Both the position numbers and the translations under genes were made by a program. Shown piece by piece: positions 892-3,774 of a DNA stretch of 5,088 nucleotides; position 1 is the stretch's first letter, and every line of letters starts with the position of its first letter. The DNA comes from a virus (lineage: Duplodnaviria > Heunggongvirae > Uroviricota > Caudoviricetes). The notes below the pieces were generated by a model, which saw nothing but the letters and a program-made list of their open reading frames with translations, made no database searches and was not told the DNA's origin. The DNA lies in IMG/VR virus record IMGVR_UViG_2681813320_000010, positions 1-5,088 of that record; one strand, given 5' to 3'.

Positions 892-1083
892 TTAAAGACC
901 TGCCGGGATTTCGTTATTATCCTGGTGAATAACTTTATCGACCGGGTAACAGTTACCGGGAATTTTCTGTTCTGCTGCGGCAGCCATGCATTCTTTCATT
1001 GAGTTGTACATGCCGGTGATTGCATCAAGCGACTCACCAGTATTGAGATATACAGTCAGAATGAGTATGAATAATGTGTTCAT
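892..1083 (-). CDS. Small hypothetical protein (63 aa) with hydrophobic N-terminal segment, candidate small membrane protein
   Basis: ATG at 1083-1081 preceded by GGAGAG Shine-Dalgarno (5-nt spacing); the track ORF 892..1089 starts 2 codons earlier at GTG. Product MNTLFILILTVYLNTGES... has a hydrophobic stretch at the N-terminus. Its start overlaps the stop of the upstream gene in an ATGA junction. Stop TAA at 894-892. Confidence 0.45.
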   Translation of the reverse strand: MNTLFILILTVYLNTGESLDAITGMYNSMKECMAAAAEQKIPGNCYPVDKVIHQDNNEIPAGL

Positions 1084-1268
1084 CGCCACTCTCCGAAAAT
1101 ACCGAGTTTAAGAAGGGCAATTCTGGAGAGTATGGAATTGTCATTCAGCAGGTAGGGTTCATATTTTCTCATATTGATTGCATCCTCGGTGAAATCCCTG
1201 TTACTGAGCAGAACACCAATATTAAAGCACCCGTCAGACGTATTAACGTTTGGTAGTGACGTTTCCAT
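1080..1268 (-). CDS. Small hypothetical protein (62 aa), translationally coupled to the downstream small membrane protein gene
   Basis: ATG at 1268-1266 with GAGGA Shine-Dalgarno 7 nt upstream. The longer track ORF 1080..1373 starts at GTG with no ribosome-binding site and runs through the inverted repeat, so the shorter start is preferred. Stop TGA overlaps the next ATG (ATGA). Confidence 0.4.
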   Translation of the reverse strand: METSLPNVNTSDGCFNIGVLLSNRDFTEDAINMRKYEPYLLNDNSILSRIALLKLGIFGEWR

Positions 1269-1285
1269 TATCGCGTCCTCAACAA

Positions 1286-1433
1286 TGAATTTTGTGATGC
1301 GGTGCCTGGTGCCTCCAGGTGACGTTAACCAGTTAACAATTAACGCCGGATACAGAGAATCCACCCATAACACTGTTTTTGGTTTTAACTGTTCCGCGTG
1401 CGCTCAGCCGCATTCACCACATCACAAAATTCA
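1286..1433. repeat. 19-bp imperfect inverted repeat pair bracketing a 110-bp spacer
   Basis: 1286-1304 TGAATTTTGTGATGCGGTG; 1415-1433 CACCACATCACAAAATTCA, the reverse complement with 1 mismatch (18/19). The spacer 1305-1414 holds a GGTGCCT tandem direct repeat (1301-1314), a CCTGG/CCAGG palindrome and three closely spaced TTAAC motifs (1325-1344). The left arm ends 18 nt upstream of the ATG at 1268. Confidence 0.6.
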
Positions 1434-1827
1434 CTTTAAAAAGGGCGGCAGAGCAGTCACGGAGTAAAACTGATACCGCCAAAAGTCACCAGAAAATTGA
1501 TAACAGAGGGCGTTGCAGCGGAGTTGTCACTTAAGCGTATGGTCAACCTGACAACCCGGTGTCCTCAACGGGGGAAGGAATAACCCCGCCATACTTACCG
1601 CCGCGCCATTTCGCGGAGTGCCACAACCGGAAGCGCACGGTCGAACTAAATTTAACGACACCGTACAGAGAGACCAATTTCGCCGTGCGCTTTCGCGTTA
1701 TGCCCTGACTTTTCAGGGACATATCCTTTCAGTAAACTGTCAGTGCCGGATGTTCACCCGTGTCCGGCGCACGCACTCCACCTGACCCGTGGAGAACTCC
1801 TTAATTACCAACCCTCAGGAGGGTGAA
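1434..1827. other. ORF-poor, GC-richer structured intergenic region between the plus-strand 92-aa gene and the minus-strand small-gene operon
   Basis: No ORF of 60 codons or more in any frame across about 1468-1788. By hand count about 57% GC over 1541-1700, against AT-rich flanking small genes. Hairpins: CCGCG-ccattt-CGCGG (about 1600-1616), CCCTGA-cttt-TCAGGG (1703-1718), GCCGGA-12nt-TCCGGC (about 1744-1767). GTGCGC/GCGCAC recurs four times. Weak candidate plus-strand promoter: -35 TTTTCA at 1710-1715, -10 TAAACT at 1733-1738. Confidence 0.4.
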
Positions 1828-2106
1828 ATGGATAAAAAGCAAATTGAGGCCCTGCAATCTATTATTGAAAAACAAGATGAAGCTATCAGGATTCTTTCAT
1901 ATCGCACTGATATGATACTAAATATGCTTTCTGCATTAACGGCTGCGCTTGGTGGTACAAAAACAAACGTATACCGCGAAGTTGTTATTCAACAGATAGA
2001 TAAATTTGAAAAAACCATACCAGGTATTAATGCTCATCTTGCAGAACAAGAGAAAGACCATGCTCTTATGGCAATTTCTTCAGTAGCTCTCCCGAAAGTT
2101 GAGTAG
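1828..2106 (+). CDS. Hypothetical 92-aa coiled-coil-like protein, transcribed opposite to the surrounding early-left genes
   Basis: ATG at 1828 preceded by strong AGGAGGG Shine-Dalgarno (1817-1823); the track ORF begins upstream at GTG 1789 with no ribosome-binding site. Product MDKKQIEALQSIIEKQDEAIRILSYRTDMILNMLSALTAALGG... is balanced and heptad-like. Stop TAG at 2104-2106. The 3-prime 41 nt overlap the convergent 133-aa gene. Confidence 0.5.
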   Translation: MDKKQIEALQSIIEKQDEAIRILSYRTDMILNMLSALTAALGGTKTNVYREVVIQQIDKFEKTIPGINAHLAEQEKDHALMAISSVALPKVE

Positions 2107-2467
2107 TTTTAATTGTTGTTTTGAAATAATCACTGCTTTCACATTTGAGTGATTTCATGGCAATCCAAATGCGGGCCTCTGTGCCTGCATTTGGTTCCAG
2201 TTGCTGTAGACGTTTTGCGTCTTCCAAAAGTAAGGCGATAATGTGTTTCAGCTTCTCATCATTTGCTTGATTCTTGTTTTCAGGCGAATTCTGTCCGCCG
2301 AATAGGCGCTTCTCTTCATACAGACCTATAAAGGCACGACGCACGTTACCGGATATAGTATCGATGGTTTCCTTTTCTACAGTACTCAGGTCAAGAGTCG
2401 CCAGTTGAGAGCGAACCACATTCGCTGCCATTTCCTGGAATGGCATTGGTAAATCTTTAAATTCCAT
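2066..2467 (-). CDS. Hypothetical early-left protein (133 aa)
   Basis: ATG at 2467-2465 with GAGG Shine-Dalgarno 6 nt upstream, 22 nt after the stop of the upstream 72-aa gene (operon-like). Protein-like composition (MEFKDLPMPFQEMAANVVRSQLATLDLSTVEKETIDTISG...). No family recognised. The last 13 codons overlap the plus-strand gene, so the true 3-prime end is uncertain. Confidence 0.5.
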   Translation of the reverse strand: MEFKDLPMPFQEMAANVVRSQLATLDLSTVEKETIDTISGNVRRAFIGLYEEKRLFGGQNSPENKNQANDEKLKHIIALLLEDAKRLQQLEPNAGTEARIWIAMKSLKCESSDYFKTTIKTTQLSGELLKKLP

Positions 2468-2489
2468 TATTAGCCTCGTTGGTTAGCTA

Positions 2490-2708
2490 TTAACGTGGGT
2501 ATGTAACCATTCTGGCAATGCTTAATGCCGCTGCTTTTTCCAGCCTGGTGATATCCTGCTCCAGAGCGGACAGATTTTCAGCCTGCTTAGTCCTGGCTTC
2601 ATTGGCCCATTTCAGATCCTGCGCTGCATTAATTTTCTGGCGCATCCACTCATAAAGTTCATCATCGGTATAGTCTGGCGCGATGATGACGGGTTCTCGT
2701 TTCTGCAT
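2490..2708 (-). CDS. Hypothetical small early-left protein (72 aa), predicted helical/coiled-coil
   Basis: ATG at 2708-2706 with GAGGAA Shine-Dalgarno 6 nt upstream; stop TAA at 2492-2490. Product MQKREPVIIAPDYTDDELYEWMRQKINAAQDLKWANEARTKQAENLSALEQDITRLEKAAALSIARMVTYPR is charged and helix-prone. No family recognised. Confidence 0.5.
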   Translation of the reverse strand: MQKREPVIIAPDYTDDELYEWMRQKINAAQDLKWANEARTKQAENLSALEQDITRLEKAAALSIARMVTYPR

Positions 2709-2737
2709 ACTGATTCCTCGCGGTGCTGTTTCGCTTA

Positions 2738-2866
2738 TCAGCCGTTAGATTTTGCCGAACTGGAAAGCGCCTGTTTAAATTCGTTGAAGCTGAGAGCTTC
2801 TTCGCCTTCGGCAAGACCTTCGAAGTATTCTTCGTAAGCCTTTTCCATGATTGTGTCGAAATCCAT
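2738..2866 (-). CDS. Small acidic hypothetical protein (42 aa), absent from the ORF track because it is short
   Basis: Manual translation from ATG 2866-2864 to TGA 2740-2738: MDFDTIMEKAYEEYFEGLAEGEEALSFNEFKQALSSSAKSNG. AGGTGA Shine-Dalgarno-like sequence upstream; ATG lies 1 nt after the stop of the upstream 51-aa ORF. The overlapping track ORFs 2662..2871 (-) and 2723..2920 (+) have basic or antisense-like low-complexity products and are considered shadows. Resembles the small Rac-prophage ydaF/ydaG-type genes by size and position, from memory only. Confidence 0.4.
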   Translation of the reverse strand: MDFDTIMEKAYEEYFEGLAEGEEALSFNEFKQALSSSAKSNG

Positions 2867-2867
2867 A

Positions 2868-3023
2868 TCACTCACCTGAGTTTCTTTCCAGCCAGCGACG
2901 GGCACCATTTTCGGTTTTAAACGTTTTGCTTTTGGTATACGTCATCGCGGTGAACGTACCGTCCTGGTTGGGGAACACGCCACATACCAGAGATTCGCTG
3001 TTGCCAAGATCGATAGTATCCAT
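2868..3023 (-). CDS. Small hypothetical protein (51 aa); first gene after the candidate OL/pL region (alternative upstream start at 3104 would give 78 aa)
   Basis: ATG at 3023-3021 with GAGGT Shine-Dalgarno 4 nt upstream: MDTIDLGNSESLVCGVFPNQDGTFTAMTYTKSKTFKTENGARRWLERNSGE; stop TGA 2870-2868. The track ORF extends to ATG 3104 with an N-rich hydrophobic extension of doubtful coding character. Start choice is unresolved. Confidence 0.45.
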   Translation of the reverse strand: MDTIDLGNSESLVCGVFPNQDGTFTAMTYTKSKTFKTENGARRWLERNSGE

Positions 3024-3199
3024 GCTGACCTCATTTCCCCTTAACGCCGGGGTAGCGGAACAAAAACCTGCTGCATAGTTATTAAAGTTGAACCCTGCCG
3101 TCATGTTCTTACGCCTCGGGCTGGCTACTTAACCCCTGACCACTGCCGGGTAACTCGAAGTATTGCCTGGCGTTCTGTGGGGCGGGGTGGGTTGATGAA

Positions 3200-3292: not shown

Positions 3293-3583
3293 TTAACAGG
3301 TTTTGTTTGGATACTGTCTTCGTGAGTGAACTACATTTACGATCTCGATGTTAGATGCTGTTACTCGGTAAAGTATTATGTAGTTAGGATGAGTCACTAT
3401 CTCACGAAGACTTGGAACTCTTTCGCTCGGTGGGTACAGATAAGGGTGTTCAGTAAGTGACAAAACTGATGTTTCAATGCGTATTTTTAGTCTACGTGCA
3501 GCGGGAGGGTTTTCCTTAGCAATATAGGCTACGATCTGACGTAAATCATCACGTGCAGAAGGTAGCCATAAAATGGGCAGCAT
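3293..3583 (-). CDS. parE: Type II toxin, ParE/RelE superfamily (ParE-like), 96 aa
   Basis: Product MLPILWLPSARDDLRQIVAYIAKENPPAARRLKIRIETSVLSLTEHPYLYPPSERVPSLREIVTHPNYIILYRVTASNIEIVNVVHSRRQYP shows the ParE pattern: W-x-x-x-A-x-x-DL-x-x-I-x-x-YIA, an R-x-L/I-E region, R-E/L-V/I then YRV then I-x-I-x-x-V-x-H, and a terminal RQ-x-P. ATG overlaps the upstream antitoxin stop by 1 nt (TAATG). Family assignment is from memory of ParE sequences; parE is a family-level symbol only. Confidence 0.8.
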   Translation of the reverse strand: MLPILWLPSARDDLRQIVAYIAKENPPAARRLKIRIETSVLSLTEHPYLYPPSERVPSLREIVTHPNYIILYRVTASNIEIVNVVHSRRQYPNKTC

Positions 3584-3774
3584 TACTCACTCCTGTTCGT
3601 TGCAGCTAATTGAGCAATAAGGTTTTCCATTTCAGCCATTACTTCGTCATGTGGAATTGCAGGACGGGGATCTGAGAGGCTTGCTGCCACTTTGGTTCGC
3701 AACCATTCGTTATAGCTGTTTTCTTGTTCGACTGTTTCAAATTCAGAAATTATCGGGGAAAGGGCTGTACTCAT
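3583..3774 (-). CDS. paaA: Small antitoxin (63 aa) paired with the ParE-like toxin; resembles PaaA-type antitoxins of three-component ParE systems
   Basis: ATG at 3774-3772 with GGAGG Shine-Dalgarno 7 nt upstream, 17 nt after the repressor stop; stop overlaps the toxin start. Product MSTALSPIISEFETVEQENSYNEWLRTKVAASLSDPRPAIPHDEVMAEMENLIAQLAATNRSE is small, acidic and likely disordered, typical of type II antitoxins. The PaaA-like call rests on gene order and recollection, not a search; paaA is a family-level symbol only. Confidence 0.7.
   Translation of the reverse strand: MSTALSPIISEFETVEQENSYNEWLRTKVAASLSDPRPAIPHDEVMAEMENLIAQLAATNRSE

Follow-up and report, generated by a model that had tools for sequence, protein, structure and literature searches.

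A probable dicF segment in a Qin-like Escherichia coli prophage and the covarying RNA junction domain of its precursor

What does a stretch of phage DNA encode that is rich in G+C and in hairpins, lies among small genes and holds no long open reading frame (ORF)? The question is raised by positions 1434-1827 of a viral sequence of 5,088 nucleotides, the whole of which is called the window here. An earlier note, made from the sequence alone, had described the stretch as GC-richer than its surroundings, hairpin-rich and free of ORFs of 60 codons or more, and all three descriptions hold. The G+C content is 53.3% over 1434-1827 and 56.9% over 1541-1700, compared to 46.1% for the whole window, 42.6% for 800-1433 and 44.1% for 1828-3100. 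The longest ORF with a start codon has 59 amino acids, and four local hairpins are found alongside a multi-helix junction and the DicF terminator (Table 1).

The stretch is very probably the untranslated dicF segment of a dicBF-type early-left operon, carried on the minus strand of a Qin-like lambdoid prophage. By every feature that could be tested, it belongs to the DicF/dicBF family. What this identification leaves to be explained is a conserved RNA domain that occupies the 5' part of the DicF precursor and reaches well beyond the dicF loci themselves.

The dicF locus and its operon

The window corresponds to the early part of a Qin-like lambdoid prophage of E. coli, and its positions 1380-1830 are 100% identical to E. 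coli NZ_CP042892. At that locus, RefSeq annotates on the minus strand of the window a hypothetical gene, a relB/relE pair, ydfA, ydfB, ydfC, a further hypothetical gene, dicB, a DUF1482 (ydfD-like) gene and an exonuclease gene, together with a small hypothetical gene on the plus strand. We take the hypothetical gene preceding relB/relE to be a cI-like repressor. DicB and DUF1482 were both confirmed by Pfam. The Qin prophage of E. coli K-12 MG1655 contains the same operon, in which the annotated non-coding RNA dicF is separated from ydfC, upstream, by 340 nt and from dicB, downstream, by 174 nt, whereas dicF carries no RefSeq annotation at the NZ_CP042892 locus. The gene order ydfA-ydfB-ydfC-(spacer)-dicF-dicB-ydfD is common to both.

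This context changes how the stretch is to be viewed. The earlier note had placed it between a plus-strand gene and the minus-strand operon, but it actually lies inside that operon, flanked by dicB and ydfC. Because the region is intra-operonic, a comparison with the space needed by a divergent promoter pair does not apply. Nor is it a region with no assigned function, as had been stated: the Rfam match and the Qin-like operon identify the known dicF locus.

The scan with Rfam covariance models that had been proposed as a check yielded DicF well above its gathering score (RF00039; 75.8 bits versus 48, E = 5e-16), with model positions 1-52 of 52 aligned to 1443-1494 on the minus strand. The limits of the 53-nt RNA given in Table 1 were set from the K-12 boundaries. 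A GGCGG...CCGCC hairpin, which constitutes the 3' half of DicF, is followed by UUUUU at 1438-1442, as expected for an intrinsic terminator at the DicF 3' end. The position within the operon is likewise that of dicF, which follows ydfABC and precedes dicB, all on one strand. The guess that the stretch encodes a structured non-coding RNA was therefore right in kind. The only other Rfam match in the window, STnc100 (RF02076; 1236-1445, minus strand), falls in the dicF-dicB spacer and almost wholly outside 1434-1827; with 38.4 bits it remained below its gathering score of 47 and was rejected.

Upstream of DicF, window positions 1495-1812 align end to end with the 340-nt ydfC-dicF spacer of K-12, with ~92% identity over ~320 nt. 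The two loci also agree in the candidate hairpin for RNase III and in the region of the 190-nt precursor. They differ at DicF nucleotide 12, which is U here and G in K-12, and the window has a relBE-type toxin-antitoxin pair and a different cI-like repressor upstream. They also differ by a 655-bp insertion between ydfC and the spacer. In an alignment of the window with K-12 and the phage Tritos, the K-12 spacer is homologous up to 1812/1813, and positions 1813-2467 are missing from both K-12 Qin and Tritos. The insertion consists of a plus-strand gene (1828-2106) and a minus-strand gene (2066-2467), both hypothetical; its antisense gene could alter transcription into dicF. The earlier note had also suggested that the stretch might be the remnant of an inserted module. 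An inserted module does exist, but it is the adjoining 1813-2467; the region itself was found with at least 90% identity in 4556 of 5426 complete E. coli genomes.

Table 1 Features of the dicF segment and its surroundings (window coordinates; paired strands are joined by "with")
Feature	Position	Strand	Basis
dicB, cell-division inhibitor, next operon gene	1080-1268	-	Pfam PF05358 DicB, 111.7 bits; RefSeq of identical locus
Run of five U after DicF terminator hairpin	1438-1442	-	Read from sequence
DicF small RNA, 53 nt	1443-1495	-	Rfam RF00039 match 1443-1494; aligns to K-12 dicF b1574
Single-stranded A/U-rich linker GCCCUCUGUUAUCAA between folded domain and DicF	1496-1511	-	Identical to K-12
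Conserved four-way-junction RNA domain, 5' part (~137 nt) of ~190-nt DicF precursor	1512-1627	-	MFE fold, covariance model R1, covariation
Helix P1	1620-1627 with 1512-1519	-	
Helix P2	1612-1616 with 1601-1605	-	
Helix P3	1597-1599 with 1558-1560 and 1584-1588 with 1569-1573	-	
Helix P4	1549-1557 with 1521-1529	-	
Candidate loop-loop pseudoknot	1589-1594 (GUAUGG) with 1537-1542 (CCAUAC)	-	
59-aa Arg/Lys-rich ORF, not a gene, overlies H2 and junction	1543-1722	-	ORF conservation
Long hairpin H2	1631-1692	-	Folds of 96 homologous flanks; covariation
Upstream part of untranslated ydfC-dicF spacer, three local hairpins	1693-1812	-	K-12/Tritos alignment; flank folds
Hairpin CCCUGA-AAAG-UCAGGG	1703-1718	-	
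Hairpin GCCGGA/UCCGGC, adjoins GTGCGC copy at 1767	1745-1768	-	
Hairpin CUCCAC/GUGGAG	1776-1794	-	
ydfC, last K-12 Qin-shared coding gene upstream of untranslated region	2490-2708	-	RefSeq; K-12 alignment

Covarying structures in the DicF precursor

In K-12, Northern blots reveal a 190-nt and a 53-nt DicF species, the former with a 5' end that depends on RNase III, as determined by primer extension, and the latter dependent on RNase E (PMC10448788). Stationary-phase cells accumulate the 190-nt species, which is stable, and an internal promoter was not found (PMC10448788). The main long transcript, ydfABC-dicF, measures 1,146 nt and ends at the DicF terminator (PMC10448788; PMC5069750), and read-through to ydfD was observed only with RNase E inactive (PMC10448788). 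Consistent with the published lack of an internal promoter, our promoter scan found no sigma-70-like site on the minus strand of 1630-1812. The suggestion of a processing element was thus also right in kind, a precursor processed by RNase III as well as RNase E having been described for K-12 (PMC10448788). Locus, small RNA, long untranslated region, 190-nt precursor and RNase III/E processing are all already published.

Two structures upstream of DicF are supported by covariation, namely the long hairpin H2 and the four-way junction. In H2, AAGCGCACGGCGAA (1679-1692) pairs with UUCG-A-CCGUGCGCUU (1631-1645), and the hairpin is present in the folds of nearly all Qin-type homologous flanks (96 flanks folded). 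Among 56 distinct sequences, 6 of its 14 pairs show changes on both sides, compared to 1.6 ± 1.0 pairs in shuffled controls (0/500) and at most 3 in slid controls. An RNA of 190 nt that ends at the DicF terminator would start at ~1632, inside the 3' strand of H2, if its 5' end is placed from the RNA length alone and not from the published cut position. From its position, we take H2 to be a candidate RNase III substrate that would create the 5' end of the 190-nt RNA.

H2 also accounts for part of a sequence repetition. The earlier note had counted four copies of GTGCGC/GCGCAC in the stretch. Three of them (1633, 1685 and 1767) are indeed inside 1434-1827, whereas the fourth, at 1398, is outside. 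Three copies are more than expected by chance (shuffle mean 0.25; 0.7% of 2000 shuffles reach three), and GTGCGC at 1633 and GCGCAC at 1685 are the two strands of the covarying hairpin. A pairing of the GTGCGC at 1633 with the GCGCAC at 1398 was considered and discarded on inspection: covariation links the 1633 strand to 1685, and one homologue (L257) has an altered 1633 strand and an unaltered 1398 strand.

Further upstream, the spacer contains the three local hairpins listed in Table 1. Positions 1723-1788 are complementary to 1380-1442, 3' of DicF, with a predicted energy of -43.4 kcal/mol versus -27.7 ± 4.2 kcal/mol for shuffled sequences. Compensatory change in this long-range stem was absent from 44 distinct sequence pairs.

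Downstream of H2, the domain sequence from the window adopts a four-way junction, composed of helices P1 to P4, as its minimum free energy (MFE) fold. With RNAalifold on a plain MAFFT alignment, the structure was poorly supported and the variable P3 hairpin misaligned. The structure was therefore defined by hand and then turned into a covariance model (R1), with which the sequences were realigned; R1 scores 158 bits on the window. In the R1 alignment of 59 distinct sequences, compensatory changes occur in 19 of 36 pairs, compared to 7.3 ± 1.8 in shuffled alignments (0/500) and 1 to 7 covarying pairs in slid controls, and 95.6% of the cells are paired. The MAFFT alignment of 46 diverse sequences gave 14 of 36 compensatory pairs (shuffled, 6.3 ± 1.7). 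Most of the covariation resides in P1 (7 of 8 pairs), inner P3 (4 of 5) and P4 (6 of 9). P2 and the candidate pseudoknot contribute one compensatory pair each, that of the pseudoknot in the P1/P7 lineage, while outer P3 and the loop sequences of the domain are invariant. The search for structure-preserving covariation that the note had called for thus has a positive outcome for both the junction and H2.

The thermodynamic evidence is of a different kind. Taken alone, the junction domain has an MFE z-score that is not significant (z = 0.15), and the MFE fold of the whole 190-nt RNA favours a different pairing, in which an invariant GGCGG pairs with the 3' strand of the terminator. Both results speak against the junction fold. 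As the z-scores are not significant, the case for the junction rests on covariation.

The domain does not correspond to an RNA family that we could find. Over 1495-1827, none of the Rfam 15 families, including riboswitches, ribozymes, C4/isrK and tRNA-like RNAs, gave a match at E <= 1, and no Rfam family covers the domain in ten other loci that were scanned (E <= 1 for three, E <= 0.01 for seven). ARAGORN detected neither a tRNA nor a tmRNA. The junction model, a range wider than that of DicF and the fusion to many small RNA (sRNA) modules were not found in Rfam or the searchable literature, although the DicF papers of 1990 and 1994 may contain the structure.

Distribution of the domain

Conservation of the domain extends much further than that of the remaining spacer. 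BLAST searches recovered a core of ~100-125 nt in P1/P7-type phages, the cdtI phage, Stx2c phages and an Actinobacillus phage record, where it follows dicA. In the cdtI, Stx2c and pPE4 phages, the domain is located 320-355 nt after the immunity repressor gene, at the head of the early-left transcript; in cdtI and Stx2c, it follows cI by ~355 nt. Matches on plasmids came from Escherichia, Salmonella, Klebsiella and Shigella, mostly on P1-like non-mobilisable replicons. A 15-base pattern scan of genome contigs yielded a single real match, in E. albertii (L145), and nearly all others were chance hits. The taxonomic range given here is that drawn from phage, plasmid and IMG/VR collections.

Pattern scans of IMG/VR retrieved ~200 distinct loci. 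In all of 199 distinct loci, the domain shares its strand with the immunity repressor, which lies upstream, and ydfA/B/C may or may not intervene. It precedes dicB, kil or the cdtI orf39 homologue; in P1-type elements it is found at the ban promoter, 48 nt after dmt. Of 102 distinct downstream flanks, 96 contain a hairpin followed by a T run at a distance of 32-79 nt from the domain. The terminator/seed modules at this place belong to at least nine unrelated sequence types, DicF being one of them. Four lineages have no terminator after the domain; in one of these a coding gene follows directly. In one locus (L276), the domain is fused directly to an mRNA. In nearly all lineages, the P3 loop is rich in C and U and contains UCCU or CUCC; one lineage, L261/L335, is G-rich in this loop.

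The ban leader of P1/P7 contains the same junction domain (R1, 94 bits), which comes shortly after a promoter under repressor control and is itself succeeded by an intrinsic terminator. In the P1 record (AF234172, misc_feature), the domain is labelled 'dicF-like region' in the leader of the ban operon, directly after the C1-controlled promoter. The annotated -10 hexamer of the ban promoter ends 24 nt before the start of the model match, so that the P1 RNA starts about where RNase III would cut in Qin, initiation standing in for the cut. P1 thus differs in that its RNA begins at a promoter and not at an RNase III cut, in a terminator/sRNA module unrelated to DicF, and in its downstream genes, which are tRNAs, tciABC and ban instead of dicB. 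That 'dicF-like' sequences are conserved, P1 included, has reportedly long been noted, as indicated by the GenBank annotation of P1 and the title of a 1994 paper by Faubladier and Bouché.

Processing and possible roles of the domain

The K-12 literature shows both RNA species, their RNase dependence (PMC10448788) and the targets of DicF. Given the similarity of the two loci, processing in this prophage would probably take place at the same sites as in K-12. Minus-strand transcription would start at a repressor-controlled early-left promoter upstream of ydfA, and the transcript would fold into a series of hairpins. A cut by RNase III in H2 would then produce an RNA of ~190 nt, composed of the junction domain, the A/U-rich linker and DicF, and ending at DicF's own intrinsic terminator with its U run. 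RNase E would cut in the linker, presumably at its 3' edge, where we place the cut that makes the DicF 5' end, and liberate the 53-nt DicF. Together with Hfq, DicF would act in trans to repress ftsZ and other mRNAs, while transcripts that read through the terminator would allow the expression of dicB and ydfD.

In its release from a longer transcript, DicF is comparable to SroC, CpxQ and MicL, 3'UTR-derived or intra-operonic Hfq sRNAs that are likewise cut by RNase E from a longer mRNA and end at an intrinsic terminator. In the case of MicL, upstream stem-loops are said to be able to guide processing. DicF differs from these sRNAs in that RNase III acts first and in that the precursor has a large conserved multi-helix domain, common to different sRNA modules.

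What, then, does the junction contribute? It is quite possible, in our tentative view, that it serves as a 5' structural scaffold, which would both define the 5' end left by processing and protect it, and would also expose the linker to RNase E. This role is weakened by the fact that a simple 5' hairpin would be enough for protection, so that the invariant loops and the pseudoknot would be left unexplained.

A broader proposal, which we put forward with reserve as a possible reading, is that the domain constitutes an unrecognised, self-contained RNA family of temperate enterobacterial phages, among them lambdoid prophages as well as phage-plasmids of the P1/P7 type. Placed at the 5' end of early transcripts, whether this end arises by processing or by transcription, it may act as a platform for interchangeable Hfq-type sRNA modules or control read-through.

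Two more specific functions have been considered, both of which appear unlikely to us. One is control of transcription in cis: as a put-like element, a riboswitch-like element or a protein-binding attenuator, the junction would decide between a stop at the terminator and read-through into toxic dicB or kil. The genomic arrangement agrees with such a function, since the domain heads the early-left transcript in the cdtI, Stx2c and pPE4 phages, directly follows the C1-controlled ban promoter in P1 and is nearly always succeeded by an intrinsic terminator. Invariant loops would be expected for contacts with a ligand, a protein or the polymerase. Moreover, the invariant GGCGG resembles the 5' strand of most terminators, and its pairing with the terminator 3' strand in the MFE of the 190-nt RNA represents a possible alternative conformer. 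However, this alternative pairing is not kept in P1-type or GGUGG/CCACC-type terminators, and a distant upstream strand is expected, by our reasoning, to lose kinetically to the local terminator hairpin. The four lineages with a domain and no terminator also argue against control in cis, as does the K-12 main transcript, which ends at the DicF terminator and is extended only when RNase E is inactive (PMC10448788).

The earlier note had also suggested an antitermination element, and such a role is possible. The put RNA of HK022 and the lambdoid nut sites resemble the domain in being structured RNA near the start of early transcripts and upstream of terminators. Nevertheless, R1 had no match at E <= 1 in HK022 20000-34000, the region expected to hold pL, pR and hence put (which is not annotated in the record), and no riboswitch or other Rfam family matched the domain. 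A boxA-like string, CGUGCGCUU, is the 3' strand of the covarying H2 and not single-stranded, unlike what a nut site would have. An N-like protein was not found among seven neighbouring operon and region ORFs, a set that leaves out ydfA, ydfB, relBE and the cI-like gene.

The other function, which we judge to be similarly improbable, is that the ~137-nt domain is a functional RNA itself, for instance a second regulatory arm or a protein sponge, freed by RNase E, with DicF-type modules as interchangeable passengers. Several properties would fit: it has a wider conservation than DicF, at least nine unrelated terminator/seed modules are joined to it, as is an mRNA directly in L276, and its C/U-rich P3 loop (UCCU/CUCC) resembles seeds that pair with Shine-Dalgarno sequences. 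The compensatory change in the loop-loop pseudoknot of the P1/P7 lineage and the stability and stationary-phase accumulation of the 190-nt species (PMC10448788) can be read in the same way. On the other hand, a transcript corresponding to the free 5' fragment is not reported in the accessible literature, the L261/L335 lineage has a G-rich P3 loop, and the conservation is equally compatible with a role in cis.

A protein product of the 59-aa ORF is very improbable. The ORF was suspected early on to be non-coding, with the reservation that it might be an N-like arginine-rich protein. Its conservation bears out the suspicion and not the reservation: of 157 distinct homologous sequences, just 7 retain an ATG-started ORF of at least 55 aa in the same frame. 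For K-12 and the majority of relatives, this frame comprises 0-17 codons, and in K-12 ATT replaces the ATG and a 1-nt deletion shifts the frame. No reading frame of the core is open in the majority of 59 distinct sequences, the ORF, the only Arg-rich one, has no Pfam match, and the substitutions in it are paired compensatory changes in RNA helices. What would support a real small protein, such as an N-like antiterminator, is that annotators called the ORF in several phage genomes and that it matches phrog_8854 over its full length (E = 1.4e-42). However, phrog_8854 appears to be a family built from repeated spurious ORF calls over the RNA element.

An inert stretch, left over from an inserted module or a dead gene and now decaying, is scarcely credible: it is a cryptic-prophage-type region next to a real 655-bp insertion, but copies persist in most E. 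coli genomes, its helices are maintained by compensatory changes, and processed RNAs were detected experimentally in K-12 (PMC10448788).

We return to the reading of the stretch as a dicF segment with a conserved domain in its precursor. In large part, its significance is a matter of annotation: dicF is missing from the RefSeq annotation of the locus, and a spurious 59-aa protein has entered some phage records and PHROGs. What is modestly new is that the 190-nt precursor holds a covariation-supported domain without an Rfam family, common to P1, Stx2c, cdtI and Qin-type phages. If the domain is an RNA family of its own, the element would have the conserved domain as its core and DicF as its passenger. 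Should the domain have its own function, this would explain the persistence of DicF-like loci in most E. coli genomes and would offer a way to find a whole set of prophage sRNAs that differ in their seeds.

Pairing, alleles and loops of the DicF precursor

At nucleotide 12 of DicF (window 1484), the prophage carries GUGACUUUUGG, compared with GUGACGUUUGG in K-12. This is a minority allele, which is also present in the homologous locus L057, and the position falls within the 5′ single-stranded part of the sRNA that we assume to serve target pairing. In the conserved domain, the four-way-junction RNA in the 5′ part of the DicF precursor, the P3 loop varies in sequence and length among homologous loci, yet is nearly always C/U-rich with an anti-Shine-Dalgarno-like UCCU or CUCC. 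The exception is a single lineage (L261/L335) with GGAGUCUGA.

Folding of the entire ~190-nt RNA (1438-1632, minus strand) gave a minimum free energy structure in which the invariant GGCGCGGCGGUAAGUAUGGCGGGG paired with the 3′ half of DicF, replacing the four-way junction. It is possible that this predicted pairing represents an alternative conformer of similar energy. A second, long-range complementarity links the upstream leader (1723-1788) with the segment directly 3′ of DicF (1380-1442; both minus strand), for which RNAduplex calculated -43.4 kcal/mol versus -27.7±4.2 kcal/mol in shuffled sequences (1 of 300 shuffles was better). No compensatory changes in this pairing were observed among 44 distinct sequence pairs. 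The pairing would be consistent with a reported RNase III cleavage yielding a 72-nt DicF 3′ end.

The non-conserved 59-aa ORF overlying the RNA structures (1543-1722, minus strand) matched phrog_8854 (PHROGs; 59 positions, unknown function) with E = 1e-42. This protein family was probably assembled from ORF calls over the RNA element.

Insertion and neighbouring elements

Compared with K-12 Qin and phage Tritos, the window contains a 655-bp insertion (1813-2467). Its two ORFs are convergent with a 41-nt overlap, the minus-strand ORF having the orientation of the operon, and a Pfam search found no match for either of them. The plus-strand gene, antisense to the operon, could disturb transcription that proceeds into dicF. 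The promoter-like site that follows the relB/relE-type pair is probably the equivalent of dicBp. C4 antisense RNA and isrK occur in phages that carry the conserved domain, in an operon separate from it, and L252 additionally contains c4-a1b1 above the Rfam threshold.

Coordinates of features in the window and in homologous loci (L-numbers)
Feature	Location	Strand	Remarks
relB/relE-type toxin-antitoxin pair	3293-3774	-	between cI-like gene and early-left operon
Intrinsic terminator after the pair	3278-3261	-	
Promoter-like site after the pair	3231-3203	-	
Insertion ORF	2066-2467	-	phrog_1363
Insertion ORF	1828-2106	+	phrog_18692
P3 loop	1574-1583	-	homologous loops in L017, L032, L252, L257, L276 and others
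STnc100 sub-threshold match	1236-1445	-	RF02076
STnc100 sub-threshold matches	L006 2758-2942; L257 3993-4197; L276 5138-5331; L004 3842-3961		RF02076
C4 antisense RNA and isrK	L005 40-228; L252 2569-2769	-	above Rfam thresholds

Segments downstream of the conserved domain

In Actinobacillus phage vB_Apl-pPE4 (L006), the sRNA/terminator module 3′ of the domain is tandemly duplicated (~2600-2740). Across the matched dicF-region segments, the record is ~80-85% identical to prophage sequence of E. coli, which is unexpected for a Pasteurellaceae phage. The terminator hairpin of L252 and L046, 40-120 nt past the domain, is long. Within it lies an AGGAGG that resembles a Shine-Dalgarno sequence, and a start codon comes next (ATG in L252, GTG in L046). 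This arrangement may represent a very short ORF or a terminator that responds to translation.

All matches to STnc100 were sub-threshold, scoring 33-42 bits (gathering score, 47). Those in the window, L006 and L257 span a conserved segment directly 3′ of the DicF-type terminator that reaches the start of dicB or kil, while the match in L276 is located ~500 nt past the domain. Phage P1 has a similar segment upstream of tciA. Together, the sub-threshold matches and the P1 segment suggest a common 5′ leader of cell-division-inhibitor genes.
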